Shown here one piece after another: positions 2,690-31,514 of a DNA stretch of 32,000 bases; positions within the stretch are counted from its first letter, which is position 1; every line of letters starts with the position of its first letter. The stretch covers positions 50,523 to 82,522 of the forward strand of contig JASBSB010000005.1 of assembly GCA_030149205.1 (NCBI GenBank). Reading direction: 5' to 3'. The position numbers were made by a program, and so were the translations under genes. The stretch comes from Candidatus Heimdallarchaeota archaeon. Lineage in GTDB: Archaea > Asgardarchaeota > Heimdallarchaeia > Heimdallarchaeales > Kariarchaeaceae. A model generated the notes under the pieces. It made no database searches. It was not told the origin of the DNA and saw only the letters and a list, made by a program, of their open reading frames with translations.

Positions 2690-2771
2690 TTGTATCTAAG
2701 TAATGTATCAACAATTGATATATAAATTCTTTTGTTATGAACCTTTCCAAAATTTTGATGTTTAAGTATAC

Positions 2772-2987
2772 CTAGTTTAAAACTTTGTATCCGAGTTGAG
2801 AGATTGCTTCCTTTAGTTTTTCTACATTCCCTTTTGATGCATCTGTGAGTGTGAAGTCACCTTTTGCAGCTTCCCATTCTACATCCGCTTTTTCAACAAA
2901 ATCAAATTTTGATGTCCTTGCTTTAATTCCATTGGAACACCCATTGCAGGTCATTCCCTCTATTTCTAATGTTATTGTTTTAGACAT
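2772..2987 (-). CDS. copZ: Copper chaperone, single HMA domain
   Basis: 71 aa with GMTCNGC, SD-like AGGTGA just upstream, same strand and directly upstream of copA. Confidence 0.85.
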   Translation of the reverse strand: MSKTITLEIEGMTCNGCSNGIKARTSKFDFVEKADVEWEAAKGDFTLTDASKGNVEKLKEAISQLGYKVLN

Positions 2988-3228
2988 AATATCACCTGAT
3001 GATATGTTAAATATTGATATATTAGAAATATTATAAAGGTATAGATAATAGTACTATTCCGCCTATTAATGAATGAGAGATTAGTTTCAATACACTGACT
3101 CTCCTAAATGTTTTTAGCAATATGAAACTTTCATAGGTTAGTCTTACAATGATTTTATCTGTGAATATTTGGAGTGGTAAATCTTTAAATAGAAAAACAA
3201 GATTGAGTCATTATGGAGGGAACACATA

Positions 3229-4842: not shown

Positions 4843-6266
4843 CAACTTTTGTTCATACATCTGATTGGCACCTTGGCTTTTTTCAATATAACAAAAATCT
4901 TAGACATGATGACTTCTTTGCAGCAGCAAATAGAATCGTTGATAAAATAATAAAAATTGAGCCAGATTTTGTGCTTCACACAGGGGATCTTTTTCATCAT
5001 AAATCTCCTACACCTGGGAGTGTTCTACAGGCATTAAAGTTGCTTAACAAACTAACAAAGAAAAAAATACCAGTATTCATCATCCGGGGTAACCATGATG
5101 CGTACACGACAAGGAACCTTCAGTACGGTGGAACTGCTTTACAGCTACTTAATGAGGCAACTGGATTGAACTATATCAATGATGATGTAATGAACTTCAA
5201 TGATGTGGATATCATTGGAGTCGGTCATTACTTCTCCGGAAGGGCTAATGAAACATTACAACGTATAAATCAAGAAAAGAGACCCTTTGATGATCGTTCA
5301 AACTTTAAAATATTAGCGATTCATAATTTTATAGAAGGACAAATTTCAGACACTTCAGAGGTAAGTTTGAGTCTGATTCAGGATCTAGCACCTGATTACG
5401 TTGCAGCTGGTCATTTTCATATCCCTTGGAAGCGAGAAAAATTAAATATATTTGTCCCAGGAAGCTCTGAATCTACATCCGCTAATGATTGGAACAGAGA
5501 GGATAACCTGAATGGAAATATTACACTATATTCTTCATTTTACGAGGTAAAATTGGAAAATCATAATGGTTGGAGTAAGGAGGTGATTCAACATAGGATA
5601 CCGGTTAGGCCAAAATTCAAGTTAGAGATTTCATCAGAGTCAATTGATCATCTGGAAATTAAATCTCAAATTTCAGAAGAAATCAATCAAGTAAAAAAAT
5701 TTGCATTTTCTACAATTGTTGAAGAATTTAACTACAACTCTGATAAGAAACCAGTACGAACCGCATTTGAACAACCATTAGTTCGAATAAGGCTAGATGC
5801 AAAAAATCTTCCACAGACCAACCAACATTTAATTAGCACACAAGAGTTAGAGTCAGAGTTAGGTTTGCTTAACCTTGAAATTTCATTTGATGATTCATTC
5901 GAATCTGATTTTCCAATAACTCAAGGTGAACATGTTGTTGTTGAAGATTTACTTCAAGAGTTAATCGAGGAAAGCGAAATAGATGACAAACCTCACCTAA
6001 CCCAATTAGTCCATCAAACTATAGATTATTTTGGTCAAAAGGCAAAAAGTACGACTCTTGGTCTGGACGACCTCAACCATTTTCTGAGAATACAAGATGA
6101 AAGCTGGAAATTAGGATCTACCCCGAAAATTATGAAATACACAGAAGATGAGCCTCCGAAAGAGAATCTAAATGCTTCGTCTTCAAATCCAAATAAAAAA
6201 GCTTCAGCAGAATCATCCAAATCATCTCGAAAAAGAAACCAGCAATGGGAGGATCTCTTTGAATGA
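4839..6266 (+). CDS. mre11: Mre11 DNA double-strand-break repair nuclease
   Basis: All five metallophosphoesterase motifs (DWHLG, GDLFH, GNHD, HNF, GHFH). Lies between herA and rad50 with ATGA overlaps. Confidence 0.92.
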   Translation: MTTFVHTSDWHLGFFQYNKNLRHDDFFAAANRIVDKIIKIEPDFVLHTGDLFHHKSPTPGSVLQALKLLNKLTKKKIPVFIIRGNHDAYTTRNLQYGGTALQLLNEATGLNYINDDVMNFNDVDIIGVGHYFSGRANETLQRINQEKRPFDDRSNFKILAIHNFIEGQISDTSEVSLSLIQDLAPDYVAAGHFHIPWKREKLNIFVPGSSESTSANDWNREDNLNGNITLYSSFYEVKLENHNGWSKEVIQHRIPVRPKFKLEISSESIDHLEIKSQISEEINQVKKFAFSTIVEEFNYNSDKKPVRTAFEQPLVRIRLDAKNLPQTNQHLISTQELESELGLLNLEISFDDSFESDFPITQGEHVVVEDLLQELIEESEIDDKPHLTQLVHQTIDYFGQKAKSTTLGLDDLNHFLRIQDESWKLGSTPKIMKYTEDEPPKENLNASSSNPNKKASAESSKSSRKRNQQWEDLFE

Positions 6267-15893: not shown

Positions 15894-17453
15894 ATGGTGA
15901 ACAGCAGGGAGAAAAATCTTGTAAGCATGAAGAATACCGAACTTGTACAAAAAACTCTGAATTATTTTGAGAAAAAGAGAGATGATCGAAAGAGGAATAG
16001 GGAGGATCAAGGTAAGAAGACTGAAGAGGATTTAATAATAGAAGATCTGGTCACTTTCTTCAAGACTGAGAACCGAAAAGAGCGAACTGAACTAATAAAA
16101 TTAAGCAATAAATATCAAGAAATGGAACGCAGAATGATCTGTAACATAAATCCTCAAGAGGAACAAAAACATGCAGATTGGGCAATATTGACAGTGGGTA
16201 ATAGAGAACAACCCATTATTTTATCAGTATTGTTGTTGCGTGCAAGAAAGGTGTTTCTGCTCCATACCAGTGGATCTAAAAACACAGCAGAACTTGTTGA
16301 AAATTGTCCAGACCTTGTTAGGAGAAAAATTGATTTTGAACTTCATGAAATCGATGAGGTTGACCCCACAAAGTTATATCAGGAAACGAGAGAGATTATC
16401 AAGCAGGCAAAGATTGAAGGAAAGACCATAGTCATAGACCCAACTGGTGGTAGAAAATCTATGAGCGCAGGTGCATCTGCAGTTGCTTTTTTCTACAGAA
16501 TACCAATGGTATACCTTCATGGGTATGAAAAGCAATCAATAATAATGCCGTTTACTGAATATATGAAGGTTATTCCAAACCCCTATGATCTGTTTGGAGA
16601 CTTTGATATGAAGCTGATTTTAAGCATGGCGAACAACTATAGTTACTCAGCAGCTATAGAATCTATTGAAACTATACATCGCACCAAAGATATAATTGGT
16701 CAAACTGTCCAGGAGTTTACAGCATTAAAATATATTTTGGAGGTATATGAACTCTGGGACAGGTTTAAGCATAGTGATTCCAAGAATCAAAATATTCTCT
16801 CTCGACAGTTAGAAATTAATTATAGAAAAATTGGATCTCTTTCCAAAGACACTGTCAACCAGATGGAAAAAAATATTCAATTTCTGAAAAAGATAGAAAC
16901 TGCATGGTTGGGGTCTTCTGTAATGTATGATGAGTTTAGGATTGTAGACCTCTACACAATGATTGAGAGAAGAAAGGAGTCCAAAAAATTTGAGGAGGCT
17001 CTTGCCCTACTGTATCGATTATTTGAAATGGTAGCGACACATCTACTCCTCAAGAAAATGAGCTTAAAAGATCCTAATCTAACAGTTGGAGAGGTAAAAG
17101 AGTTCATGGTAAATCGTGACCCAAATTTTAATCTCGGGGATCTAATTACAAAACCGGGGGACAAACTGAGTCTGTTTGTGCTAAATGCCATTCTAGTTAA
17201 AGGATTTTACGGGGATACAGTTGTCTCTAAATTTGGTGAAACCTATGAATATTTAGAAACAATAAAAGAAAAAAGAAATAGCTCCTATTTTGGTCATGGA
17301 ACTGACAGTGTTACAAAAGAGGAATTTATTGAGGCGTTCAACTCGGTTCATCGGTTTTTGATTCTTATGTTTAAAGATATTAAGTTAGACTTTGATGAGC
17401 TAACCACCTTAGCCAAATTTCCAAAGTTTAGGTCTCTGGATACTTGGAATTGA
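15894..17453 (+). CDS. CARF-HEPN protein, TIGR02710-like CRISPR-associated ancillary nuclease family
   Basis: CARF core ILTVG...PIILS...VFLLHT and IDPTGGRKSMSAG, NPY linker, C-terminal HEPN RxxxxxxH motif RNSSYFGH. Confidence 0.82.
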   Translation: MVNSREKNLVSMKNTELVQKTLNYFEKKRDDRKRNREDQGKKTEEDLIIEDLVTFFKTENRKERTELIKLSNKYQEMERRMICNINPQEEQKHADWAILTVGNREQPIILSVLLLRARKVFLLHTSGSKNTAELVENCPDLVRRKIDFELHEIDEVDPTKLYQETREIIKQAKIEGKTIVIDPTGGRKSMSAGASAVAFFYRIPMVYLHGYEKQSIIMPFTEYMKVIPNPYDLFGDFDMKLILSMANNYSYSAAIESIETIHRTKDIIGQTVQEFTALKYILEVYELWDRFKHSDSKNQNILSRQLEINYRKIGSLSKDTVNQMEKNIQFLKKIETAWLGSSVMYDEFRIVDLYTMIERRKESKKFEEALALLYRLFEMVATHLLLKKMSLKDPNLTVGEVKEFMVNRDPNFNLGDLITKPGDKLSLFVLNAILVKGFYGDTVVSKFGETYEYLETIKEKRNSSYFGHGTDSVTKEEFIEAFNSVHRFLILMFKDIKLDFDELTTLAKFPKFRSLDTWN

Positions 17454-18971: not shown

Positions 18972-19361
18972 ATGAAACTTGCAATCCCAACAGTTAATGA
19001 ACACCCAACACTGAACAGTAAACCAAATGACACAATGGAGGGTGCTAAGTCGTATGTGATCTATGATACCAGCTCAGAAGAATTTACATTCTTTGAAAAT
19101 GGATACCTCAACTCTGATGAATGCTACATTTCTCGTGATTTGAAATTAATGGGAGTTACAGGGGTTATCACTCCTTCCATCTGCAATGAGTGTTATAAGA
19201 ACCTTCAATCCCAGGGTATAGATGTATGGAAAGATGAAGGCAGCAAAACAATCAGACTTGCAATTCAAAAGCTCGTAATGTGTGGTCTAAGCATAATCGC
19301 AGAAGCTCCTTTATGCTCAAGTCCAAAGCACTATTTAATAGCCCAAACAATAACTCGTTAA
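18972..19361 (+). CDS. NifB/NifX-family (FeMo-co-binding / IssA-like) protein, Cys-rich variant
   Basis: MKLAIPT, SYVIYD..SEEFTFFEN, GVTGVIT..I..ECYKNLQSQGIDVW, T.RLAIQKL. SD AAGGTGA; five Cys. Confidence 0.7.
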   Translation: MKLAIPTVNEHPTLNSKPNDTMEGAKSYVIYDTSSEEFTFFENGYLNSDECYISRDLKLMGVTGVITPSICNECYKNLQSQGIDVWKDEGSKTIRLAIQKLVMCGLSIIAEAPLCSSPKHYLIAQTITR

Positions 19362-19364
19362 AAA

Positions 19365-20111
19365 CTAAGTTCTTTTCTTTTCAATCCAATTTCTTTCTCT
19401 TAATGACTCTACAAACATTTGTAGCATTGCCATATCCAAATTCATTAAATGAGATAAATCAGATGAACAGTGCTTTCCTAGACATGTTATTGCTCTAAGG
19501 ATCACTCTATCCTCATACGAGAGCTCTGAATCTTCCTTTAGTAATTCATCTATCTCCCCCATCAAACTATTCTTGTTTTCTAATTCATCCATAAGCTGCC
19601 TTTCTAGACTCTCAATTCTCTTGTTCGATTCTTGAACAACCTTGTACAGGTTATAAAATTTTATTTTCCTCTCCAGTTTCTCTCCTTCATTTCCCGTTGG
19701 GAAGGAAGGGCTTATTGTTTTCAGTCCCTCTGGGATATTTTTGACAACGCCTCTGTTGTCTCCCCGTGCAATTATATGATTATGTACATAATTTGGGAGG
19801 ATCACAAAGAATAAACCAATAGTTTCAGATATCTTATAAAGTGTGGCTTCAGCCCCCTTCTTACCCGAAAAACTCTCTTTAGTTACCTTTGATGCCTCAA
19901 TTAGTTTGATGTTTTCATCTGATTCAAGCTGAGATAGGTGTCGGTGGATCGCGGGACTAGACACATCCAGGATGTTTGCAATTCTGTTTCCATAGTTGTG
20001 TTCACAAGCTATTAACCTAAGAATCTGTCTTCGGGTCACATTGCTTATTGAATCAAATAATGGGTGTTCAATAGAACAAATGAGAGAATTTTGTTCCTGT
20101 TTAATAGACAT
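19365..20111 (-). CDS. ArsR-family winged-helix regulator with coiled coil and C-terminal HTH-like domain (paralog 1, four Cys)
   Basis: ISNVTRRQILRLIA...IANILDVSSPAIHRHLSQL. Clear paralog of 26337-27071. Confidence 0.8.
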   Translation of the reverse strand: MSIKQEQNSLICSIEHPLFDSISNVTRRQILRLIACEHNYGNRIANILDVSSPAIHRHLSQLESDENIKLIEASKVTKESFSGKKGAEATLYKISETIGLFFVILPNYVHNHIIARGDNRGVVKNIPEGLKTISPSFPTGNEGEKLERKIKFYNLYKVVQESNKRIESLERQLMDELENKNSLMGEIDELLKEDSELSYEDRVILRAITCLGKHCSSDLSHLMNLDMAMLQMFVESLRERNWIEKKRT

Positions 20112-20432
20112 TAACTACTACTTTATTCCTCTTATATTAACCTGACGTTTGACTAAAGACGCAATCCACAAAAATTCTAGTTAGTTTAAAATAATAATTC
20201 TTTATTTTTTTCATTAAAATCAATCATTAATTCGTAAATTCATGATATTTCCTTTTAATAATTCATATTATAATAAAATATTAAAGTACAATTTATTCAA
20301 ATGGCTAATACAAAATTTATTGTAATTTATTTATAAATATTCCCTATAATTTCTCTATATTTTAGAAAATTACCTAATATATTTGTATTTACTTAACAAA
20401 TTCTGTTGGTCGATACTCAAGATATTAATATT

Positions 20433-20456
20433 ATGTAAACAACTTTATTGTAACAA
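20433..20456 (+). promoter_or_regulatory. Candidate operator upstream of tusA
   Basis: ATGTAAACAA and TTGTAACAA near-palindromes resembling those at 18790-18809. Confidence 0.3.
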
Positions 20457-20489
20457 GTGTGATTTGTTTGCACTTGAAGGTGAAGATAA

Positions 20490-20738
20490 ATGAGTGAATT
20501 AAATCAAATCAAACCTGCTGTAGTAATAGATGCTAGGGGAAGTGCTTGCCCTGGTCCAATTCTTGAAGCTAAGAAAGGAATAAGAAAAGTCAAAGTCGGA
20601 GAAATTCTTGAGGTAAGATCAAGTGATGAGGGAACTAAGCATGATCTTCCAATTTGGGTAAAGAGGTCTGGACACGAATTTCTAGGTATGGTAGAAGCAG
20701 AGGGTTACACCCGATTGTTCATAAAGAGGATGAAGTAA
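20490..20738 (+). CDS. tusA: TusA/SirA-family sulfur carrier
   Basis: IDARGSACPGPILEAKK, GEILEV.SSDEGTKHDLP.W. SD GAAGGTGA. Confidence 0.92.
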   Translation: MSELNQIKPAVVIDARGSACPGPILEAKKGIRKVKVGEILEVRSSDEGTKHDLPIWVKRSGHEFLGMVEAEGYTRLFIKRMK

Positions 20739-20764
20739 CCTGGTTCTTTGAAGAGGTGGTCTCT

Positions 20765-21196
20765 ATGAGTGAAGAACCAAGAATTTTGATTATTACGACA
20801 ACATCCTGTTCATATCCTGGTGTGGATAATGCAGGACAGAAACATCTTGAGTATTCCCCTCACAGCTATGTGTTAAATGTTCCTGACCCAGTGATGTTTC
20901 CAATATCCTTCTATTTAAAGGCATTTGATCTGGGGTATGACGGCATATTTATTGCATCATGTGGAACTGATAGCCCATTTAGGAAGACCTATGACAAGCT
21001 TTCTGCTCGAATTGACGAATTAGTCAAAGAAATGAAAAAACTTGGGATTCATTACTCTCGAGTCAAACTTACCGCTATTTGTACAGTTTGCGCAGACCAC
21101 TTTGTTAAGGAACTTAAGGAATTTTCAGAGACAATTGCTACATTACCAATAACAGAGGTACCAGCGGTTGAATCTGCTGGTATGGAGAGTAGTTAA
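20765..21196 (+). CDS. mvhD: MvhD/FlpD-like iron-sulfur subunit, divergent Cys pattern
   Basis: EPRIL..CSYPGVDNAGQ.HLEY, KAF..G.DGIFIASCG, GI...RVKL..I. Start at ATG 20765 with SD GAGGTG, rather than 20654. Confidence 0.78.
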   Translation: MSEEPRILIITTTSCSYPGVDNAGQKHLEYSPHSYVLNVPDPVMFPISFYLKAFDLGYDGIFIASCGTDSPFRKTYDKLSARIDELVKEMKKLGIHYSRVKLTAICTVCADHFVKELKEFSETIATLPITEVPAVESAGMESS

Positions 21197-21197
21197 C

Positions 21198-22535
21198 ATG
21201 TATGAATATGATGCATTGATTGTGGGTGCCGGGATTTCTGGAATTCAGTCTGCCATAGATCTGGGCGATATGGGATATAAAGTTCTCATGATTGATAAAC
21301 AGTCATCAATTGGTGGTACGATGATACAGCTTAGTAAAGTGTTTCCAACCTTAGACTGTGCTTCATGTATCACAACCCCTAAGATGTCTACTGCTTTTCA
21401 TCATGATAACATTGAAGTCAGGACGTTGTGTGAGGTCAAGCATTACAAAGATTTAGAAGATGGTAGATTTGAAGTTATTCTAAAACAAAACCCACGTTTC
21501 GTTGATATGGACAAATGTACTGGATGTAATGATTGTGCAGAAGCCTGCCCTGTTGCAGCAATCGATCTTGGATATGATGAAGGCATGAGTTATAAAAAAG
21601 CTGTGGGAGTGCCATTTGCAACGGCATTACCTCAAAAGGCTGCTTTAGACATAGAAAGTTGTATTTTCTGTGGTAAGTGTGCAAATGCATGTCCAACTCA
21701 AGCCATCAATTTTGATCATAGAGAAGAAGAGATTCCTATTAATGTAGGAGCCATTGTGATCGCAACCGGGTTTTACGAAACCCCCACGATCAGAGAGAAA
21801 TATGGTGGTGGTAAATTTAAGAATGTTATAACAGGAAAACAGATGGAAAGATTGCTAGCTCCAACAGGTCCTGCTGGAGGTGTATTCCGTCCATCTGATG
21901 GAAAATCACCAGGTAGCATAGCATATGTTCAATGCGCTGGATCAAGGGATGCCACAATCGGTGTCCCTTACTGCTCCTCAATTTGTTGTATGTTTGCAAT
22001 AAAACAAGCAATGTTGTTAAGTGCAGCAGTTCCATTAGCAGAGATTACAGTCTACTATATGGATATCAGGGCATTTGGAAAAGGTTACGAAGACTTTTAT
22101 GAAGAAGCTAAGGCTATGGGTGTAGAATTTGTTAAAGGAAAGGTTGCACAAATCCATGAAGATGATGAAACTAAAGATCTAACTGTTAGTGTTGAAGTTT
22201 TTGGAGAAGATGGAGGCATTCAAAAAGTTGATCACGACCTTGTTGTTCTTTCAATGGGTGTAGTCCCACAGTGGACAGCTGACATGAGTAAAATTATTCC
22301 AGTTCAGCTTGGCCCTGATCGATTTATAAGAGAGATACGTTTCACTGAGGAACCTGGTTTGACATCAATCCCAGGTGTTTTTGCCGCTGGAATGGCAACA
22401 GGGCCAAAAGATATTGTAGATTCTATAAATTCAGGTAGTTCAGTTGCTGGAAAAGTAGCACTGTGGTTATCTGGTGGATTAAGAGAGGAATATGAGGTGC
22501 AATATATCCCTCTAATTCCTACCCTTGGGAAGTGA
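21198..22535 (+). CDS. hdrA: HdrA-like FAD/Fe-S protein 1 (inserted ferredoxin, no N-terminal domain or C-terminal ferredoxin)
   Basis: GAGISG FAD motif, SKVFPTLDCASC, CTGCNDCAEACP and CIFCGKCANACP, CAGSRD..YCSSICC, YMDIRAFGKGYEDFY. Start at ATG 21198, just after the mvhD stop. Confidence 0.93.
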   Translation: MYEYDALIVGAGISGIQSAIDLGDMGYKVLMIDKQSSIGGTMIQLSKVFPTLDCASCITTPKMSTAFHHDNIEVRTLCEVKHYKDLEDGRFEVILKQNPRFVDMDKCTGCNDCAEACPVAAIDLGYDEGMSYKKAVGVPFATALPQKAALDIESCIFCGKCANACPTQAINFDHREEEIPINVGAIVIATGFYETPTIREKYGGGKFKNVITGKQMERLLAPTGPAGGVFRPSDGKSPGSIAYVQCAGSRDATIGVPYCSSICCMFAIKQAMLLSAAVPLAEITVYYMDIRAFGKGYEDFYEEAKAMGVEFVKGKVAQIHEDDETKDLTVSVEVFGEDGGIQKVDHDLVVLSMGVVPQWTADMSKIIPVQLGPDRFIREIRFTEEPGLTSIPGVFAAGMATGPKDIVDSINSGSSVAGKVALWLSGGLREEYEVQYIPLIPTLGK

Positions 22536-22540
22536 TGATT

Positions 22541-24412
22541 ATGTCTGACAAAGAGAAAAAGGATAAAAAGAAGGCAGATAAGACTGAGGAAACTCAGCCA
22601 AGAGTTGGAGTCTATGTTTGTCACTGTGGTGGAAACATCTCAGACGTTGTAGACACATCTAAGGTTTCTAAAATAATAGGAGAAGATCCAAATGTTGCAG
22701 TTTCCAAGGATTTCATTTTCATGTGCTCTGATCCAGGACAAAAGATGATTGCAGATGATGTGAAGGCAAATCATTTGGATCATGTAATTGTGGCTTCTTG
22801 TTCTCCAAGACTTCATGAAATGACTTTCCAAAGAGTAGTCTCTGATGCAGGATTAAACCCTTTCCAGTATCAACATGTAAATATCAGGGAACAAGTTTCC
22901 TGGGTTCACTCCCATCAGCACGAGGAAGCAACAGATAAATCTATAAGGTTAATTAGAGGTGCAATTGCATCCGTGTTAGATCAACCTCCTCTTGAACCTA
23001 TCAAGAAAAAGATGATCCAAAGTGCAGCTGTAATAGGTGGGGGAGTAGCAGGTATGACAGCAGCTCTTGACCTTGCGAATAGAGATATTCCAGTTCATCT
23101 CATCGAAAAAGGACCTGTGCTAGGGGGAAACCTTCTGAACCTAGATAAACTCTATCCAATGGAAATAGATGCGAAATCATTTGCATTAAATTTAGCTGAC
23201 AAAGTTTTGAAAAACCCTGCAATTTACTTACACCTTGATACAGTGGTAGATAAAACAGAAGGGGCTATTGGTGACTTTATGCTCCAACTAAAGAAAACTG
23301 AAGAGTCAACAGTCAACAAAGAGAACTTTGCGGTTTCCCTTACAGAACCCGAAAAAAATCCAGATTATGATATTTCAGTTCTCCATGTGGGCTCATTTAT
23401 TATGGCAACTGGTCATGATCTGTATGAACCTTATGAAGGTGAATATGGTTACAAAAAATCTCCATTTGTTGTTACCCTACCTGACCTTATCAAGTATCTG
23501 AATATATACAGGGGGAACACATTCGTATACAAAGGTAAAGAGATCAAAACTGTTGCAATGATTCATTGTGTTGGAAGTCGACAGATTGAAGGAGTACATC
23601 AACCTCCCCCAAGTGGAATTCTTAATACTAATTGTTCAAGAGTCTGCTGTACCACAACACTTCAACAGGCAAATAGGTTAAAATCATTATTCCCTAAGAT
23701 CCAAATCTATGATCTCTACAGAGATATAAGAACATACGGTGAAAAGGAACACTACTATGAGGAAGCATCAAAGAATAATGTGATTTTCATAAAATATCCT
23801 GATGAAGAATCACCAGAAGTAGAAATTAACGGATCATTAAAAATAAAAACACGTGATATCATAACCTATGGATTAGAGGTAGAAATGGAGGTAGATATGA
23901 TTGTTTTGGCTGTGGGGTTAATTCCTAGGATCAAACCTCATATCATAACCGACCTCTCATTACCAACTGGTAACAATGGTTTCCTTCAGGAGGCCCATGT
24001 AAAACTTCGACCAGTTGAGAGTAGCGTTCAAGGTGTTTTTCTTGCTGGAACAGCCCAGGGGCCAAAGGATGTACGAGAGAGTACGACCACAGCCTCTGCA
24101 GCAGCAGCAAAAGCGGGTGCAATCCTTACCAAAGAAAGCATTAATTTATCTCCATTTGTTGCTGTAGTTGACACTGACAAATGCCAGGGTCATGCGCTCT
24201 GTGTGAATGAATGTGAATACAATGCAATCACAATTCATGATAAAGGTGTAGGAGAGTCAGGTGTAAAAATTGCATCTGTAGATCCTTCAGCCTGTGTTGG
24301 TTGTGGGGCTTGTGTTGCTGTGTGTCCAGAACAGGCTATCCAAGTTCAAGGATATGACATCAATAAACTTGAAAAGGAAATTTCTGCTATTATGTTGGAG
24401 GTGAAGCAATAA
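22541..24412 (+). CDS. hdrA: HdrA-like FAD/Fe-S protein 2 (N-terminal domain and C-terminal ferredoxin, no inserted ferredoxin)
   Basis: VGVYVCHCGGNI, FMCSDPGQ, ASCSPRLHE, NIREQVSWVH, GGGVAG, CVGSR..CSRVCC, CQGHALC..EC and CVGCGACVAVCP. Confidence 0.93.
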   Translation: MSDKEKKDKKKADKTEETQPRVGVYVCHCGGNISDVVDTSKVSKIIGEDPNVAVSKDFIFMCSDPGQKMIADDVKANHLDHVIVASCSPRLHEMTFQRVVSDAGLNPFQYQHVNIREQVSWVHSHQHEEATDKSIRLIRGAIASVLDQPPLEPIKKKMIQSAAVIGGGVAGMTAALDLANRDIPVHLIEKGPVLGGNLLNLDKLYPMEIDAKSFALNLADKVLKNPAIYLHLDTVVDKTEGAIGDFMLQLKKTEESTVNKENFAVSLTEPEKNPDYDISVLHVGSFIMATGHDLYEPYEGEYGYKKSPFVVTLPDLIKYLNIYRGNTFVYKGKEIKTVAMIHCVGSRQIEGVHQPPPSGILNTNCSRVCCTTTLQQANRLKSLFPKIQIYDLYRDIRTYGEKEHYYEEASKNNVIFIKYPDEESPEVEINGSLKIKTRDIITYGLEVEMEVDMIVLAVGLIPRIKPHIITDLSLPTGNNGFLQEAHVKLRPVESSVQGVFLAGTAQGPKDVRESTTTASAAAAKAGAILTKESINLSPFVAVVDTDKCQGHALCVNECEYNAITIHDKGVGESGVKIASVDPSACVGCGACVAVCPEQAIQVQGYDINKLEKEISAIMLEVKQ

Positions 24413-24702
24413 TGGGAGACAAATACTTTAAGACTGCTCTGAAGACACTGAAAGAAACTCATGGACCACCGAACGAGGAGTTTGTTGCTTCCAGCCGTGA
24501 CAGGATGAAAGTAGTTAAGGGTGTTGAGAAGGTTATGAAAACTCAACATCTAAAAACTATTCCTGAAATTGCTGAAGCAACGAACTACCCAACGGACATG
24601 ATATTTAACGCAATTAATTTCTTAATGAAGTGGAATGGGTTAAGACTTATCAATAAACGTGGTGATTATCCACAATATTCATTCGAGGTGGATGAAGAAT
24701 GA
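24412..24702 (+). CDS. Small winged-helix-like protein embedded in the operon
   Basis: 96 aa, KTIPEIAEATNYPTDMIFNAINFLMKW helix-turn-helix and GDYPQY wing. TAATG and ATGA overlaps with its neighbours; SD GGAGGTGA. Confidence 0.7.
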   Translation: MGDKYFKTALKTLKETHGPPNEEFVASSRDRMKVVKGVEKVMKTQHLKTIPEIAEATNYPTDMIFNAINFLMKWNGLRLINKRGDYPQYSFEVDEE

Positions 24703-25943
24703 GTGTTTTAAAAATAAAACCAAATCTAATTGACGAAATGCAGGACTATGGTTCATTTGATGTAAACACCTGCTTCAATTGCGGGACCTGTACAGCTACC
24801 TGCCCACTTGTAAAAGAAGATAGCCAGTTTCCTAGAATGCTTATCAGACTTGCTCAACTTGGACAATCTGATAAACTGATAGCCTCTAAAGAGTTATGGG
24901 CGTGTTATTACTGCGGTGATTGTAGCGCAAGCTGTCCGAGAGAGGCAGATCCTGCAGAATTCATGATGGCATCCAGAAGATATGCAATTGCTAATTATGA
25001 CGTGACAGGAATATCGAAATCAATTTACAAAAACAAGCTTTTGGTATTTCTCTATATGCTCATAACAGGTATTATTATAACTGCAGGGTTAGTTTATGCA
25101 GACACATCTAGATTTTTTGGGAATACCGACCACAAACTTATGGGTGGATATTATTATGAGACAATCCACTATGGTGGGCTAGTATTTGGTTCTTTGTTAG
25201 GTCTTGTAATCTTGTTGGGTGTCTATAAAATGTACAGAAACATTGATCAAACTGAGCCATTACGAAAGCAGGAAGGTTTAGATACAAAGCTTTCACTTTC
25301 TGTAAAAGCTCATCTACTTTGGACTACATTCTGGGAGACCCTGATTAACGAAGGTGCACTACAAAAGCGTTTCAAGAGAGAAGATCCAAGCACACAACCT
25401 GCACACAGACCATCTAGGTGGGTTATCCATATGACTATTGTCTGGGGATTTGTGGGATTAGCTGCAGCTACAGCATTGGATTACCTTGTTAAGGATCTAT
25501 TACTTAATGACCCCGCAGGGTTTGTTCCTATTTGGTATCCAATCAGGTTGTTAGGAATCGTTAGTGGGCTACTTATGCTGTATGGAACAAGTTACTCTCT
25601 CTACTTTAGGTGGAAGAAGGTCTCAGATTATTATAATACCAGTAATTTTGATGACTGGTTAATTCTTACATTAATCTGGTTTGTTGGGTTGACTGGATTT
25701 TTAGCAACACTCTTTGTTTATCTACCACAAAATCTAGTTTTAGGCTGGATTAATGCTGTATTGATAATCCATGTTCTCACAGTCTCATGGTTGTTCATGT
25801 TGTTACCCTTTACTAAATTTGGGCACATGATGTACAGACCATTAGCACTGTGGATTTATGATTATCAGGAACAAAAAATTGCATATGCACAGTCTCATCC
25901 CATGGAAACTCCAGAACCCTCACCGGTTCTGACAATCAGTTAA
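24699..25943 (+). CDS. QmoC-like membrane subunit: HdrC-like 2x[4Fe-4S] domain fused to a NarI/HdrE-like cytochrome b domain
   Basis: CFNCGTCTATCP and CYYCGDCSASCP, about six TM helices, His in IHY, VIHMTIVWGF, IIHV and LPFTKFGH (the last two 18 residues apart). Confidence 0.85.
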   Translation: MSVLKIKPNLIDEMQDYGSFDVNTCFNCGTCTATCPLVKEDSQFPRMLIRLAQLGQSDKLIASKELWACYYCGDCSASCPREADPAEFMMASRRYAIANYDVTGISKSIYKNKLLVFLYMLITGIIITAGLVYADTSRFFGNTDHKLMGGYYYETIHYGGLVFGSLLGLVILLGVYKMYRNIDQTEPLRKQEGLDTKLSLSVKAHLLWTTFWETLINEGALQKRFKREDPSTQPAHRPSRWVIHMTIVWGFVGLAAATALDYLVKDLLLNDPAGFVPIWYPIRLLGIVSGLLMLYGTSYSLYFRWKKVSDYYNTSNFDDWLILTLIWFVGLTGFLATLFVYLPQNLVLGWINAVLIIHVLTVSWLFMLLPFTKFGHMMYRPLALWIYDYQEQKIAYAQSHPMETPEPSPVLTIS

Positions 25944-25954
25944 GAGGTGAAAAA

Positions 25955-26320
25955 ATGACCGAAAACGACCTGTTAATAATATCAACGATTGGGCCTGAGA
26001 ACCCTGAAAAGTTACTCATGCCCTTTATTGTGGCTAATACATCATTAACATTAGATATACCTGTAACTATGTTTTTCATGTCAAGTGGTGTTGAATTAGC
26101 TCTCAAAGGCAAGGCAGAGACAATTGAAAAATTGAATGATATGCCGGATTTGCCTTCACTCTTACAGACATTTGTGTCACAAGGAGGAATTATCAAACTA
26201 TGCGGGCCATGTTGCAACCATCGTAATATTAAACCTGAAGACTTAATTGAGGGTGCTGAGATAGGAGGTGCAGCTGGTTTAGTGGATTTGGTGATGGAAA
26301 GAAAAGTACTTACGTTTTAA
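25955..26320 (+). CDS. DsrE-family sulfur-relay protein
   Basis: STIGPENPEK..MPFIVANT, VTMFFMSSGVEL..KG, IKLCGPCCNHRNI, LIEGAEIGGAAGLV. SD GAGGTGA. Confidence 0.85.
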   Translation: MTENDLLIISTIGPENPEKLLMPFIVANTSLTLDIPVTMFFMSSGVELALKGKAETIEKLNDMPDLPSLLQTFVSQGGIIKLCGPCCNHRNIKPEDLIEGAEIGGAAGLVDLVMERKVLTF

Positions 26321-26336
26321 ATGAAATATATCTTAA

Positions 26337-27071
26337 ATGATTGATAGATTCGCAGATATTACATCACATCCATTAATTGAAATTATTTCTAATGAAACAC
26401 GGTTAAAAATTTTAAAACTTATTGCCTCAGAATCTAACTATGGTAACAGACTTGCCCAAATACTTAACCTATCAACCCCGGCTGTCCATAAACATATAAA
26501 AAAATTAAAAGAAAATGTTCTTGAAATATCTAAGCGTGATAAAACTAGCTTCAGTGGTAACAAAGGTGGAGAATCAACTCATTATAAAATAAATTTGAGA
26601 TCTGGGTTGGTTTTTGCAGTTTTTCCACAGTATGTACATCTTAATTTCTATAATTATACTAAAGATGATAAAATAATTCAACCTACGATAATTCCCGACG
26701 AGGTAGATGCTCAGTTGTTTGGTGTTGAATTTAAAAATGCAGACACTACCGGGAAGGGGGACGATAATCTTGGTCAAAAAATAAAAGAGATTCATACAAT
26801 AGAACAGCAAATAATTTCAAAAGAGAACGACTTAATGAGATTATTAGCAGAAAAGAATGAGGCAATCGAACAAGCATTCAGTCAGATAGACCTTGAAAGT
26901 GCACTTGATTATGATGAACGTATAATACTAAAAAGTGTGGTTAGCTACGGAATCTCAAGCCTTCGAGAAATTTCAAACCTACTTTCAAAATCTGAAGAAG
27001 AAACCCTGAAAATCGTTCTCTCTCTAAAACAGAAAGGGTGGATAGCTGACAAGCAAATCAAACCCGTTTAA
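26337..27071 (+). CDS. ArsR-family winged-helix regulator (paralog 2, no Cys)
   Basis: ISNETRLKILKLIA...LAQILNLSTPAVHKHIKKL. Same architecture as 19365-20111; 16 nt after the DsrE gene. Confidence 0.8.
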   Translation: MIDRFADITSHPLIEIISNETRLKILKLIASESNYGNRLAQILNLSTPAVHKHIKKLKENVLEISKRDKTSFSGNKGGESTHYKINLRSGLVFAVFPQYVHLNFYNYTKDDKIIQPTIIPDEVDAQLFGVEFKNADTTGKGDDNLGQKIKEIHTIEQQIISKENDLMRLLAEKNEAIEQAFSQIDLESALDYDERIILKSVVSYGISSLREISNLLSKSEEETLKIVLSLKQKGWIADKQIKPV

Positions 27072-27243
27072 AAAATATTTTGAAGAAATTTTAGCCTGTA
27101 ATAGATTTGCGATTCTTTTTTGTAAATAGTTCATATCTTGCTAATCTATGAATTAATTCATAGATTCAGTTAATCTTAATGTTTTACCTAAATTGCCTTT
27201 TAGTGAAATGTTGTTTTATTATACACGAAAATTATTATGATAC

Positions 27244-27990
27244 TTATCTTGAAAAAAATGACCATATGAATGTCACAATAAAAGCGATGACAAGAAATTG
27301 TAACAATGTTTTCACCCAATGGGGAAGCTTTCTTTTCCGGTTATATTCGTCTCTGTCTGTCAAGTCAGTAAATCTTGGGTCACTCTCAATGAGCTCTTTT
27401 TTCTCATGTGAACTCATCTCGGAAACATGTTTTTCAAAAGGATTTGACGAACCCCCATAGGCAAACTTTCCTTTCTTTCCAGCCACACCTCCTCCAGTGA
27501 TAGTATCTTCATTAAGCTGATATTCCCTGAGTCTGTCAGGTTTTTCAATATAAAGTTTGTAAATCGTAAATCCGATAAAGATAGCCCAAAGAATCCATAA
27601 GAATCCTGGATCTAAAAAGTTGTTTGGGTTAGACCCTAGCTTCATCTCAGCATTGTCAGGAAAGCCATCGAAATCTGAATCTGGGTTGTATGGGTTGGTT
27701 CCAGTCCCCGTTCCAACAAATCCATATCCTGGAACAACGACTGGTTCCCCTGTTGGTGTTTTCTCCATGACATCTGGAATTTGATCGTTGTCACTGTCTA
27801 TAGCCAAATTCGCCCACCTCAAAGAAGAAAGTGATTTACTTAAATTGGGTAAATCTGAGAGTCGAAACCACCCTAAGACTAATTGTACAAAATACGCTAT
27901 AGAAATCATAAAAAGTAAGGTGAAAGACACTACTAACACATCTTCTTTTAGCTTGAACCATATTGTGCGAAGAGTTTCCCTTGCCTTCAC
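27244..27990 (-). CDS. Three-TM membrane protein with DxDxDG (TSP3-like) calcium-binding repeats
   Basis: DSDNDQIPD and GTNPYNPDSDFDGFPDNAE..GSNP between TM1 and TM2. GTG start. Confidence 0.7.
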   Translation of the reverse strand: MKARETLRTIWFKLKEDVLVVSFTLLFMISIAYFVQLVLGWFRLSDLPNLSKSLSSLRWANLAIDSDNDQIPDVMEKTPTGEPVVVPGYGFVGTGTGTNPYNPDSDFDGFPDNAEMKLGSNPNNFLDPGFLWILWAIFIGFTIYKLYIEKPDRLREYQLNEDTITGGGVAGKKGKFAYGGSSNPFEKHVSEMSSHEKKELIESDPRFTDLTDRDEYNRKRKLPHWVKTLLQFLVIAFIVTFIWSFFSR

Positions 27991-28232: not shown

Positions 28233-31200
28233 ATGAATGGAAGACGTACGTCTTTAATTATTATTTTAAGCTTTTTACTATTTTTCTCAATTTTCACCCA
28301 ATCTAATTTGCCAAGTCGCCAAAACAGGGCAATCCAAACTTCTCTAGTTAAGCAAAGGAGAAGAAATATCTTTGGTAGATCTGAAAATTCTGGGACTATA
28401 GGAATAAACTCTCAATTACCAAGAGTGAGAAAATCAGTTGCTATCAACTCTTTGTCTACTGGCAGGAGTTTAAAATCACTGGTCAACAACACAATCAGGG
28501 GATTAGAAGCTAAATACCTGCAACATGTTAACACCTACAAGGTTCTAAATACCTCAGTATCAATTGTTGACTCTTCTACCTTTGCATCCTTTAAATCAAA
28601 ATATAATGTAACTGGTAATGGAACAGCAAAATTTCCTTATGTGATACAAAACCTTTTGATAAACAGCAGTTCAGATTTAGGTTTTAGTTCTTCGTATCGT
28701 GTTTTTTATGTATTAAGAAACATAGTAGTTTTTGGATCACTATCCTTCAACAATGGATACAGTACCTCTTTGGGAGGTCTTACTCTAGATAATGTCTTTG
28801 TGAGAACTAGATCATCAAATTTAAATTTAATTGCATCTTCCTTTACAAATGTAACCATAGTAAATTCGGTTTTTATCAGCAATTCAGGGGGAAATATAAA
28901 TCTACATTATAATTCTGTTAACTTCCTTAAAAATAACACTCTCATCTTAGAAAGGGGTGGTACCAACACTTATTCAACTCAACTTGCGCTTACAGGCAAT
29001 CTCTGGACAACAGGAACCTATCAACAGAAGAATTCAACAGATTTAGTTAAGGACAGCACATTTCTGTCCAGAACTAGTCCTGCAATGGTATTATCAACTA
29101 CTAATTTCACCTTAGATAACAATGTAGTTTATATTGACCCAATCCCAAGTACCTCTGGCTTAAATATACAACCTTTAACAAATGGTACTGTTACCATAAA
29201 AGGTTTAGTATTAAATAATTTTGGGACATCACTTCCAATGGGAATTTATCTAGGGAGGGTGATAATGCCAAATGGGACATTCTATACTCCTGTAGTAAAT
29301 ATGAGTGATGTATTAATTTATAATACTGCAGTGGGTTTGTACATGGATGGTTTGTATCCAAGATTGTACAAAATTCATGTGAACAATTCTACAATATCTG
29401 CATTTCACATACATCACACAATGGGTGGGGTAACAACTAGTAATATAACAGTTATCAATTCAAATATAGGTGTAACATTTTCATCTGTTTCTAATCTAAC
29501 CCTTTCAGGATTTAATATGACTGATGTTGGGCTGGGTTTTTATAATGAAGGATTCACCTCAAATGTCTCTGTTTCAAAATCAGTATATATCAGATTAGGT
29601 TGGGCTTCCATGGATGCTGGTGGAAAAGAAGGTACAGTGAAAGTTATGCATTCTACATTTTTCAATTATTATCATCGTGGTCTGATTATAAGTTCTGATG
29701 CAAATTTGCTCCAACAAAAGCAAAAATATGGATGGGCTGGTTCTGGGACAAATATAGACCCTATTATAATTAAGGATACGGGTGTTTTCAACCATAAGTC
29801 AATAGGTGTTCATATTTTCAATACAACATTACATTTCGTTTTAAGGGACATTGCTTTCAATCAATCCTATACTATAGACCCACTAATTGGTGTGACTAAT
29901 TCAACAGGCTCAATCAGATTTAAAAACATAACAGCCACCGTTAAGTATGAGACAGTTCGAAGGCTGAACGGAATAAAGATACTTAATAGTTCTAATGTTG
30001 AATTTTTAAACTCAACATTCTATACTCCTTATGCATCATTTCCTACACTGACCCTTCTAAACATTCAAAATTCTGGAAAGATAAACTTGCTTTATTCTAA
30101 CTTTACCAATGGAAACATAGCCAGTGAAATTCTATCCTCTCAAAATATTGTATTTAATCATACCCTTATTAGATCCTCGAAAACAGCAATAAGTGCTAAA
30201 GACAGCACTTATCTAAAGTTTGTAAATAACATTCAGATCGGGTCATCTACAACATTTATTCCTGTGCAGGATGTGATCTCTCCTAAGTTATTTGGCTCTG
30301 GTCCCAAATCCCAAGGGTATGTATTTAACAATGTAAGTGACTCGTCTATGTTCAATAATCAAGGTATGTACCTAAACAAGGTGCTTGATGTGACTATTGG
30401 AACAAATAATACCATCGAACATAATTTCTATTCAAATATGACGTATTTTGCAACTTTTGATGCAGCTTCATTTACTAAAATAATCAATAACACAATATTA
30501 AATCTAGAATTTCAAGGTTTACAGCTCACAAGTACCACATCCTCGAGTTACAATTTTACAATCTATGGAAACTACTTTATTGGGACTTCTCCCTTTTCCC
30601 AATTGGCTTGTGATGAAGGGTTGAACAACACTTGGTACAGACCATCCTATGGGAATTACTGGAGCAATCTTCAACCCTCTGCGACAAATTACTCAATCCC
30701 TTGTGCCACGAAAACCTATGATCTTTACCCAATACAGCTGATTTATAAAAACATAACTCTCATTCAGGAATTTGGTAAATCAACATACAATGTTTCAATA
30801 ACCTCTATAAACAGGCAACGGATAACAGCAGTATATGCAAATTACCAAAATTTTACACTAGTAAGTCAAAAATATATTAACCCTTCAGATACAGTTCAAG
30901 TGAATATTTACAGCCTAAACCACCTACAGGTTGGAGAGTACTCAGTAAAATTACAGGTTTACTTTCAATTTGGTTTACAAACCAATAGAACGATAAAAAT
31001 TATAATAAGAGATACTACCCCTCCTCAGATCATCAAAGGACCATCAAATCTGATATTAAATGGCACGACTGCTACGGAGCACATACAGTTGAATTGGACT
31101 GAGTTTGATTTATCCCCATTCAACTCCAGCTTATATCAAAACGGTTCTGTCACAGCCCATAATACATTTCCTGCAAATCAAACCACAGGTCTTTTCATTT

Positions 31201-31514
31201 CATATCATCTAAACGTTGGGTATTATGTATTCAATTTCAGCGTTACAGATCTCTACAGTAATAGTGCTTTTCAGGTGTTTACTGTCCATGTATCTCAATA
31301 CACCCTTCCACCAAGCGCAACTAGCACACATCCCCCAAGTTCCTCTTCCTCTAAAACTCCAACCACAAATCCCAAAACAACAGTAGCCACACCAACTAAA
31401 TCTCAATCCCCTAGTTCAACAAATCAGGGAGGATTTGGACAGTTGATATTTATACTAATTAGTGGGTTAGGACTATCTGTAATATTTTATTACTTATCCA
31501 AAAGGAGATTCTAA
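28233..31514 (+). CDS. Large membrane-anchored surface glycoprotein with parallel beta-helix (NosD/CASH-like) and Ig-like domains
   Basis: N-terminal signal peptide, two G(N/S)GT..(F/D)P..I modules, Asn/Ser/Thr-rich beta repeats, GNYWSN..DLYP, DTTPPQI, S/T/P linker, C-terminal TM + KRRF, many NxS/T sequons. Confidence 0.85.
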   Translation: MNGRRTSLIIILSFLLFFSIFTQSNLPSRQNRAIQTSLVKQRRRNIFGRSENSGTIGINSQLPRVRKSVAINSLSTGRSLKSLVNNTIRGLEAKYLQHVNTYKVLNTSVSIVDSSTFASFKSKYNVTGNGTAKFPYVIQNLLINSSSDLGFSSSYRVFYVLRNIVVFGSLSFNNGYSTSLGGLTLDNVFVRTRSSNLNLIASSFTNVTIVNSVFISNSGGNINLHYNSVNFLKNNTLILERGGTNTYSTQLALTGNLWTTGTYQQKNSTDLVKDSTFLSRTSPAMVLSTTNFTLDNNVVYIDPIPSTSGLNIQPLTNGTVTIKGLVLNNFGTSLPMGIYLGRVIMPNGTFYTPVVNMSDVLIYNTAVGLYMDGLYPRLYKIHVNNSTISAFHIHHTMGGVTTSNITVINSNIGVTFSSVSNLTLSGFNMTDVGLGFYNEGFTSNVSVSKSVYIRLGWASMDAGGKEGTVKVMHSTFFNYYHRGLIISSDANLLQQKQKYGWAGSGTNIDPIIIKDTGVFNHKSIGVHIFNTTLHFVLRDIAFNQSYTIDPLIGVTNSTGSIRFKNITATVKYETVRRLNGIKILNSSNVEFLNSTFYTPYASFPTLTLLNIQNSGKINLLYSNFTNGNIASEILSSQNIVFNHTLIRSSKTAISAKDSTYLKFVNNIQIGSSTTFIPVQDVISPKLFGSGPKSQGYVFNNVSDSSMFNNQGMYLNKVLDVTIGTNNTIEHNFYSNMTYFATFDAASFTKIINNTILNLEFQGLQLTSTTSSSYNFTIYGNYFIGTSPFSQLACDEGLNNTWYRPSYGNYWSNLQPSATNYSIPCATKTYDLYPIQLIYKNITLIQEFGKSTYNVSITSINRQRITAVYANYQNFTLVSQKYINPSDTVQVNIYSLNHLQVGEYSVKLQVYFQFGLQTNRTIKIIIRDTTPPQIIKGPSNLILNGTTATEHIQLNWTEFDLSPFNSSLYQNGSVTAHNTFPANQTTGLFISYHLNVGYYVFNFSVTDLYSNSAFQVFTVHVSQYTLPPSATSTHPPSSSSSKTPTTNPKTTVATPTKSQSPSSTNQGGFGQLIFILISGLGLSVIFYYLSKRRF

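Follow-up and report, generated by a model that had tools for sequence, protein, structure and literature searches.

A predicted membrane complex of the Qmo/Hdr type, encoded together with the sulfur carriers TusA and DsrE in a Heimdallarchaeota genome

Complexes of the Qmo and Hdr kinds have key roles in sulfate reduction, sulfur oxidation and methanogenesis, and to our knowledge every case studied so far serves a dedicated catalytic partner. In the known relatives, the docking port for that partner enzyme is MvhD, or the MvhD domain of QmoB; canonical QmoB carries this MvhD-like domain fused to its C-terminus. A second type of Qmo, in which the QmoAB(C) subunits are HdrA-like, has been described from Ammonifex degensii and ‘Ca. 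Vulcanisaeta moutnovskia’ and is also found in organisms without Dsr or Apr, where its role was called unknown and experiments were called for (Neukirchen et al. 2023, PMC10504309). Genes for sulfur carriers have been linked to Hdr proteins in two further reports: a Hdr-TusA-rhodanese-transporter cluster of Cloacimonadota was read in 2021 as serving sulfur oxidation (PMC8542988), and a 2025 preprint proposed that a cytosolic Hdr of the Asgard archaeon Nerearchaeum reduces TusA- and DsrE-bound persulfides with hydrogen. Here, we analyze an operon at positions 20490-27071 of a 32,000-nucleotide stretch (hereafter the window) of the genome of a Candidatus Heimdallarchaeota archaeon, in which eight plus-strand genes encode TusA, an MvhD-like protein, two HdrA paralogues, a winged-helix protein of 96 amino acids (aa), a QmoC-like protein, a DsrE-family protein and an ArsR-type regulator. 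No description of a TusA-MvhD-HdrA-HdrA-QmoC-DsrE cluster was found in the searchable full-text literature, the nearest system being type II Qmo. At the genomic level, our analysis supports the reading of a first-pass annotation of this DNA, namely that the cluster is a widespread, uncharacterised variant of the Qmo/Hdr type.

The operon is predicted to encode a membrane-bound Qmo/Hdr-type complex, whose subunit contacts are modelled on those of its relatives. The genes of the operon and the elements that adjoin it are the following:

20490-20738, plus strand: TusA sulfur carrier, 82 aa (PF01206, 81 bits)
20765-21196, plus strand: MvhD/FlpD-like subunit of a distinct subfamily, 143 aa (PF02662)
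21198-22535, plus strand: HdrA1, in the QmoA position, 445 aa; FAD domain, inserted two-cluster ferredoxin domain, DCxxC
22532-24412, plus strand: HdrA2, in the QmoB position, 626 aa; N-terminal cluster, FAD and C-terminal ferredoxin domains, no fused MvhD
24412-24702, plus strand: 96-aa winged-helix protein between hdrA2 and qmoC, with only a faint Sul7s-type match
24699-25943, plus strand: QmoC-like membrane subunit, 414 aa (NF038018, 204 bits); HdrC-like two-cluster domain and six transmembrane helices
25955-26320, plus strand: DsrE-family sulfur carrier, 121 aa (PF02635, 51 bits)
26337-27071, plus strand: ArsR-type regulator, Cys-free paralogue, 244 aa (HTH_5 and NF033788)
27116-27121, plus strand: T6 run after the last gene, a putative archaeal terminator signal
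19365-20111, minus strand: ArsR-type regulator, Cys-bearing paralogue, 248 aa (HTH_5 and NF033788), divergent from the operon
20112-20489, no strand: divergent promoter region, 378 bp, AT-rich (21% GC), with weak inverted repeats only

An open reading frame (ORF) check and profile searches bore out the eight same-strand genes and the domain content that the first-pass annotation had given them, as well as its description of overlapping or near-adjacent start and stop codons, which indicate translational coupling. The hdrA1 ATG lies 1 nt past the mvhD stop codon, the hdrA2 start overlaps the stop of hdrA1, the 96-aa gene starts within the hdrA2 stop at a TAATG junction, and the qmoC start overlaps the stop of the 96-aa gene at an ATGA junction. 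Shine-Dalgarno sequences of the GGTG type, which had been noted on most of the genes, are present as GGTGA or GAGGTG(G) ahead of tusA, mvhD, the 96-aa gene, qmoC and dsrE. Two starts were corrected: the mechanical ORF of mvhD begins at TTG 20654 and overlaps tusA, and the likely translation start is ATG 20765, which stands behind GAGGTGG and yields the protein of 143 aa. For hdrA1, ATG 21198 is the most likely start. The T6 run downstream of the last gene is likely to act as the terminator signal, and the divergent ArsR-type paralogue at 19365-20111 is a ninth member of the unit.

The source genome (G000; 3.3 Mb in 12 contigs, 93.5% complete) was compared with a set of 83 species genomes of the Heimdall class; the nearest homologues of the proteins in the window are labelled Heimdallarchaeota, Kariarchaeaceae and Hodarchaeales. 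A close homologue of QmoC (at least 40% identity) is encoded by 10 of these 83 genomes, which represent five families, and the order TusA, MvhD-like, HdrA1, HdrA2, small protein, QmoC holds in five Heimdall-class families, where it is often followed by DsrE and an ArsR-type gene. The same order was found in bacteria, on a 4.9-Mb contig with sigma-70, LysR and MCP genes, in a Limnocylindrales metagenome-assembled genome and in a variant with a GltD-fused HdrA. The survey of synteny that the first-pass annotation had called for therefore finds a conserved cluster in archaeal as well as bacterial loci, and because more than 15 independent loci of both domains have the identical gene order, the arrangement is not due to chance. 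In a tree of QmoC sequences, the window’s protein belongs to a starred clade of 16, whose members of known origin are Heimdall-class, and which is placed outside a second starred clade, of 107 sequences, in which the few members with names are bacterial (backbone support 81-85). We see in this tree no indication of a recent bacterial donor, and draw nothing stronger from it. Seven further loci, from Heimdall-class genomes and Bathyarchaeia, lack TusA and are here called type B (L006, L027, L048, L049, L050, L051 and L053). Two of these, L050 and L051, have about 2.5 kb between mvhD and qmoC, a space that may hold hydrogenase genes. In the Limnocylindrales genome, the TusA-type operon is followed on the same strand by genes for a small ferredoxin and a 2-oxoacid:ferredoxin oxidoreductase (L075:5910-8733), which hints at a ferredoxin link of the complex.

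New to this family is the finding, drawn from alignments, that the MvhD-like subunit of the TusA-linked loci bears an invariant Cys/His signature of its own. The operon’s protein does not conform to the canonical MvhD pattern (CxWC, MCSGR, GCxxGDCHY); Cys15, Cys66, Cys106-x2-Cys109, His27 and Asp21 are invariant in its 120 best MvhD-like homologues, none of which (0/120) has the canonical CxWC. In the TusA-linked proteins, His27 replaces an Arg of canonical MvhD and the CxWC pair is lost, while at the site where canonical MvhD reads ISA[SA]E, the MvhD-like proteins of 15/15 TusA-linked loci read I-C-[ST]-[VI]-C. The seven TusA-free loci retain both ISA[SA]E and the full canonical Cys pattern. 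Since the QmoC proteins of TusA-linked and TusA-free loci are near neighbours in the tree within one family (f5), the change in MvhD tracks TusA linkage within a single lineage. The four Cys residues may be rearranged ligands of a [2Fe-2S] cluster or may include a redox-active CxxC, both of which are compatible with the sequence. Given that MvhD is the partner port in the relatives, the MvhD-like protein is the candidate for the face of the complex that would contact TusA and DsrE. As a practical matter, Cys106-x2-Cys109 and His27 provide a simple sequence marker for the TusA-linked family; a search of a representative set with the MvhD-like protein gave 56 matches at E<=1e-10, a number that says little on the size of the family.

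The first-pass annotation had remarked that each known catalytic partner is lacking from the window, and for AprA, ATP sulfurylase (Sat), DsrA, DsrC, HdrB and the large subunit of [NiFe] hydrogenase this lack extends to the whole genome. Searches of the source genome found no AprA, Sat, DsrA or DsrC (aprB and dsrB were not searched); the best match for the hydrogenase large subunit, MvhA, reached 21 bits and was under the cut-off (mvhG was not searched); and HdrB was absent, TIGR03288 giving no match at E<=1e-10. The only CCG-domain protein of the genome is a membrane Fe-S protein of 679 aa with two CCG domains (L041:7456-9495, contig C4), which sits among acyl-CoA dehydrogenase and fumarylacetoacetase genes; it is not HdrB and looks like an electron-transfer-flavoprotein-linked quinone reductase. 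A Ras-family small GTPase of a kind typical of Asgard archaea is encoded near this gene (L041:9966-10529). A YeeE-type transporter was not found in the genome either, and two GcvH/LbpA-type (GcvH-family) genes lie elsewhere in it, with no lbpA in the window. Neither aprA nor hdrB accompanies the cluster consistently in other genomes: AprA exceeded its cut-off in 0 of the 83 class genomes, and HdrB-like genes were absent at E<=1e-10 from the source genome and from G006, G007, G011, G014 and G018, all of which bear a QmoC-type locus (that of G014 without TusA).

The two flavoproteins, called as HdrA-like by NF040770 (450 and 477 bits), divide between them the features of one methanogen HdrA. The whole of HdrA1 can be aligned with residues 145-568 of the solved methanogen protein (416 bits), and it has invariant Cys at 54/57, 107/110/113/117, 155/158/161/165 and 259/263/264, keeping the CxnCx3CC cluster motif. 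Its Glu217 and Lys269 align with E356 and K409 of Methanothermococcus HdrA, which are reported from the 2017 structure to line the bifurcating flavin. HdrA2 matches methanogen HdrA in two stretches (373 bits) that skip the inserted ferredoxin domain, and its invariant Cys are at 30/32/65/90, 346/368/372/373, 551/557/561 and 588/594/598; it lacks DCxxC and has Ile and Gln at the sites of HdrA1’s Glu and Lys. In other words, DCxxC, the inserted ferredoxin domain and the E356/K409-type residues are found only in HdrA1, and the N- and C-terminal cluster domains only in HdrA2. The pair would therefore, on this comparison, represent complementary halves of an HdrA homodimer, with a predicted bifurcating-type flavin site at one of the two positions, that of HdrA1.

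The QmoC-like protein matches NF038018 over its full length, with a score of 204 bits against an equivalog cut-off of 300, and its ten close homologues likewise stay under that cut-off, at 197-233 bits; it is thus placed outside the bona fide Qmo equivalog. Nesting within bona fide Qmo/Hdr clades, together with a consistent co-occurrence of aprAB or hdrB, is what the first-pass annotation had named as speaking against its reading. Eight Cys, enough for two [4Fe-4S] clusters, are invariant, and there are six hydrophobic segments. At or near these segments lie His244, His358 and His376, which are invariant, and His157, which is mostly conserved, a pattern consistent with a dihaem-b anchor that faces the quinone pool. 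Transmembrane segments and starts resembling a signal peptide are absent from all the remaining subunits, so the rest of the complex should be cytoplasmic. The 96-aa protein that precedes QmoC is without a Pfam family or a conserved Cys, and in 14 other archaeal and bacterial loci a homologue is likewise encoded between hdrA2 and qmoC. Its predicted structure consists of two helices and a winged helix (pLDDT 85), in agreement with the winged helix-turn-helix call that had been made from the letters. The fixed position of the gene and its coupling on both sides suggest that the protein is a subunit of the complex; a prediction of the 96-aa protein in complex with QmoC and residues 150-626 of HdrA2 scored 0.00, which is evidence in neither direction. 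An identity with DsrD, considered because of a resemblance to winged helices of the Z-alpha type, was dropped, as no member matches the DsrD family in Pfam.

The two carriers of the operon differ in how closely they follow the complex. TusA is conserved next to the complex in every TusA-type locus examined, DsrE in roughly half of them, so that neither carrier proves to be a chance neighbour of the kind that would have counted against the first-pass reading. Cys20 of TusA, in DARGxxCPGP (CPGP, an active site of the CPxP type), is invariant in 17/17 sequences. The operon’s TusA is 45-78% identical to TusA proteins linked to the cluster in archaea and bacteria, compared with 40% for the two other TusA proteins of its own genome, which makes it a dedicated orthologue. 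In DsrE, Cys83 is invariant among 11 aligned proteins, and sulfur binding at this site is predicted from the family only.

The genome holds a second sulfur locus, on contig C8 (L040:8469-11034), with the order TusA-DsrE2-DsrE2-like-TusA-type III sulfide:quinone reductase (SQR); the SQR scored 399 bits and DsrE2 200 bits, just under its cut-off of 210. Type III SQR is encoded in 51/83 class genomes. In the complete genome G015, the SQR set and the Qmo-like operon form one same-strand array (L024:1167-10474) that reads TusA-SQR-TusA-DsrE2-DsrE2-like-winged-helix regulator-TusA-MvhD-like-HdrA1-HdrA2-small protein-QmoC. On an archaeal contig named Thorarchaeota at NCBI (L074), the SQR/TusA/DsrE2 set is likewise contiguous with Qmo-like genes, and in G052 an SQR gene lies about 4 kb from the cluster. 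This type III SQR/TusA/DsrE2 locus, and its junction with the Qmo-like operon in G015 and L074, are new observations, and the neighbourhood evidence places the Qmo-like complex in the same pathway as SQR and carrier-bound sulfane sulfur. In a same-genus genome, the type III SQR gene (G003:C159:995-2164) contains one in-frame TGA and best matches a selenoprotein subtype model, and may encode a selenocysteine-containing SQR in a Heimdall-class archaeon.

Also new is that the host of the Qmo-like operon has both haem-copper and bd oxidases. There are three genes for haem-copper oxidase subunit I and one for cytochrome bd subunit I (L081:2033-3274, contig C1), and directly upstream of the latter a protein of 474 aa (L081:379-1803) combines a metallo-beta-lactamase domain with two rhodanese domains, the architecture expected of persulfide dioxygenase-sulfurtransferase fusions. 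A sulfite-oxidase-family Mo-domain protein is encoded as well. Cytochrome bd, type III SQR and the membrane CCG protein together imply a quinol pool. Judged by this gene content, the host respires oxygen, and the family is not confined to strict anaerobes.

The two ArsR-type paralogues enclose the other genes of the unit. The four Cys of the upstream, Cys-bearing regulator are conserved in cluster-adjacent orthologues from three families (L020, L025, L026, L052 and L056), and it is a reasonable guess that this protein is a thiol-based sensor of sulfur (persulfide) or redox state. Orthologues of the downstream, Cys-free regulator come after dsrE in L020, L021 and L030. No conserved operator was found upstream of tusA across 12 orthologous regions. 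Adjoining the Cys-bearing regulator is a small NifX/NafY-type protein (PF02579; window 18972-19361), which is perhaps part of the same neighbourhood, as homologues adjoin the cluster in L020 (two copies) and L026.

Farther out in the window, a CopA-type P-type ATPase with two HMA domains adjoins an archaeal herA-mre11-rad50 set (80-9091), both of which look ordinary. A CARF-HEPN protein of the Csm6/Csx1 type (15894-17453) is an orphan, the window having neither cas genes nor a CRISPR array. A protein of 1093 aa (28233-31514) without a Pfam match resembles a surface protein, with a hydrophobic N-terminus, a stalk rich in Ser, Thr and Pro, and an anchor at the C-terminus.

On balance, we think it probable, if by no wide measure, that the operon encodes a complex which is linked to quinone, and probably to ferredoxin as well, and converts carrier-bound persulfide and sulfide into each other, with a chemistry and a direction that we infer. 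The QmoC-like subunit, with two [4Fe-4S] clusters and probably two haems b, would exchange electrons with the quinone pool. A heterodimer of HdrA1 and HdrA2 would be wired to it, with HdrA1 supplying the flavin site of the bifurcation type as well as the inserted domain turned towards ferredoxin, and HdrA2 its N-terminal cluster domain and a C-terminal ferredoxin domain that should face QmoC. The MvhD-like protein would sit at the position to which hydrogenase or APS reductase binds in the relatives, with TusA and DsrE as the partners there, and in its altered form it is the candidate thiol-active site. The reaction would be a two-electron interconversion of carrier-bound sulfane sulfur (persulfide) with thiol and sulfide, with coupling to quinone/quinol and, probably, ferredoxin through a bifurcating or confurcating flavin. 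Mapped onto Mvh-Hdr, the MvhD-like port would correspond to the mid-potential two-electron couple, QmoC, in place of HdrC-HdrB, to the high-potential branch, and the inserted domain of HdrA1 to the ferredoxin branch. The sulfide/persulfide couple lies near -260 mV, so a split of electrons between quinone and ferredoxin would be feasible; in the reverse direction, the reduction of persulfide by quinol and reduced ferredoxin would be near equilibrium with menaquinone. In the host, the complex would be placed downstream of, or parallel to, the type III SQR with its own TusA and DsrE2. With oxygen and sulfide present it could yield reduced ferredoxin; under anoxia, when the oxygen-dependent dioxygenase cannot act, it could remove the sulfane sulfur that SQR produces. 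The ArsR-type regulators, one of them with four conserved Cys, would turn the operon on upon reactive sulfur. A bolder version of this proposal, which we consider doubtful, sees in the complex an HdrB-free third kind of Hdr-type sulfur enzyme, one that would receive electrons from the sulfide/persulfide couple on TusA/DsrE at the altered MvhD-like port and bifurcate them to quinone, by way of QmoC, and to ferredoxin, by way of the inserted domain of HdrA1, or act as a confurcating persulfide reductase under anoxia. If true, sulfide turnover in Heimdall-class archaea would be linked directly to the respiratory chain as well as to the low-potential ferredoxin pool.

Several points weigh against persulfide interconversion. 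No subunit has the CCG/non-cubane site that does the thiol chemistry in HdrB, DsrK and sHdr, so no centre known to act on persulfide is present. Menaquinol by itself is not able to reduce persulfide, and the reduction of quinone by sulfide would duplicate SQR, so that any physiological gain hangs on the proposed ferredoxin arm. DsrE is missing from about half of the loci, and the carriers are tied to the complex through gene neighbourhood only. Lastly, searches of the three genomes of the same genus (82-89% complete) did not find the cluster, which is therefore dispensable; in DNA and protein comparisons with these genomes only the gene at 27244-27990 is common, which is compatible with a gain of the operon here as well as with a loss there. 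This sole common neighbour encodes a membrane protein of 248 aa with a TSP3-like repeat.

Part of this evidence would also suit a general oxidoreductase that passes electrons from ferredoxin, or another low-potential donor, to quinone, with TusA and DsrE serving cofactor or cluster maturation, thiomodification or the sensing of sulfur status. The TusA-free core in the same lineage indicates that HdrA-HdrA-MvhD-QmoC works with other partners or alone, HdrA1 has its inserted ferredoxin domain, ferredoxin and 2-oxoacid:ferredoxin oxidoreductase genes follow one bacterial locus, and the complex is without a thiol-active CCG site. We nevertheless regard this function as rather unlikely, because TusA is invariably the first gene and forms a well-conserved subfamily of its own, the MvhD-like signature shifts exactly where TusA appears, SQR and DsrE2 genes are joined to the cluster in G015 and L074, and the regulator is Cys-rich and of the ArsR type. 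Oxidation of carrier-bound sulfane sulfur to sulfite, as in sHdr systems, is far less probable. TusA, DsrE and an ArsR-type regulator do go with sHdr systems (PMC11094781), the host is an oxygen respirer, and two GcvH-family genes are present elsewhere in its genome; however, the operon has no HdrB/CCG subunit and the genome no protein of the HdrB type, which excludes an sHdr system proper, the HdrC1/C2 pair and lbpA are missing from the cluster, and a QmoC membrane anchor is foreign to sHdr.

We give slightly less credence still to the idea that carriers and complex handle selenium, as perselenide or selenotrisulfide, rather than sulfur. TusA and DsrE weakly match YedF, a TusA-DsrE-like protein of selenium metabolism, and one same-genus SQR, with its in-frame TGA, best matches the selenoprotein SQR subtype, but all matches of the YedF type are far under their cut-offs, the physical linkage is to sulfide:quinone reductase and DsrE2, and no selD, selA or selB context was seen in the window. 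The least credible reading is a canonical QmoABC that serves APS reductase, or a hydrogenase-linked Mvh/Hdr, with the partner encoded elsewhere in the genome. The full-length QmoC match and the strong homology of HdrA and MvhD are what such a complex would show; set against them are the genome’s lack of AprA, Sat, DsrA or a [NiFe] large subunit over cut-off, the lack of AprA over cut-off in all 83 class genomes, the QmoC score under the equivalog cut-off and the non-canonical Cys pattern of MvhD. The identities of canonical Qmo, sHdr and Mvh-Hdr were each rejected, as their defining parts are missing.

What the cluster adds is the same electron-transfer core with cysteine-persulfide carriers as its only co-encoded partners, in many phyla of bacteria and in several families of Asgard archaea. 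Should the carriers prove to be the substrate, the interconversion of carrier-bound persulfide and sulfide would amount to an unrecognised microbial route to reduce or oxidise zero-valent sulfur, and flavin-based bifurcation could have found a further use in it. For hydrogen-sulfur ideas on the archaeal relatives of eukaryotes, the Heimdall setting supplies a concrete piece that can be tested, as the host respires oxygen, has SQR and a persulfide-dioxygenase-like fusion, and has relatives in which SQR and Qmo-like genes are joined.

Among the described systems, QmoABC of type I, known from sulfate reducers and green sulfur bacteria, shares with the present operon two HdrA-related flavoproteins, the A-B-C order, a presumed quinone link and a QmoC made of an HdrC-like two-cluster domain and a six-helix, haem-b-type membrane domain, the haem being predicted here. 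In contrast to type I, the QmoC of the operon scores 204 bits where the cut-off is 300, HdrA1 retains the inserted ferredoxin domain, the MvhD module is a separate upstream gene with another Cys/His pattern, HdrA2 ends with a ferredoxin domain, and an additional 96-aa winged-helix gene precedes qmoC. Moreover, the genome is without aprA and sat, and TusA and DsrE are encoded in the place of the catalytic partner. Type II Qmo has A and B subunits that are closer to methanogen HdrA than to bacterial QmoAB; HdrA1 and HdrA2 score 416 and 373 bits to methanogen HdrA, the one reference covered by this comparison. The characterised examples of type II sit with APS reductase, and the link to TusA and DsrE, the winged-helix gene and the altered MvhD are not in PMC10504309.

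The MvhAGD-HdrABC complex of methanogens (PDB 5ODC, 7BKB, 8RVU) contains the full HdrA domain set that is here split over two paralogues, and its MvhD and HdrC-like modules are present too. The operon departs from it in having no HdrB, hence no heterodisulfide site, and no hydrogenase large subunit, in the fusion of the HdrC-like module to a membrane domain, and in carrying E356/K409-type residues at one flavin site of two. With the sHdr-LbpA systems of Hyphomicrobium, Acidithiobacillus and Sulfolobales it has TusA, a DsrE-family protein, an ArsR-type regulator and an HdrA-like flavoprotein in common, a likeness at the level of families only; unlike those systems, the cluster is without HdrB1/B2, HdrC1/C2 and LbpA, has a QmoC membrane anchor and includes an MvhD-like subunit that has no sHdr counterpart. 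The type B loci differ from the operon in their order, HdrA-HdrA-MvhD-QmoC, in the canonical Cys of their MvhD and in having no TusA, DsrE or winged-helix gene, and they share with it a common core of two HdrA paralogues, MvhD and QmoC.

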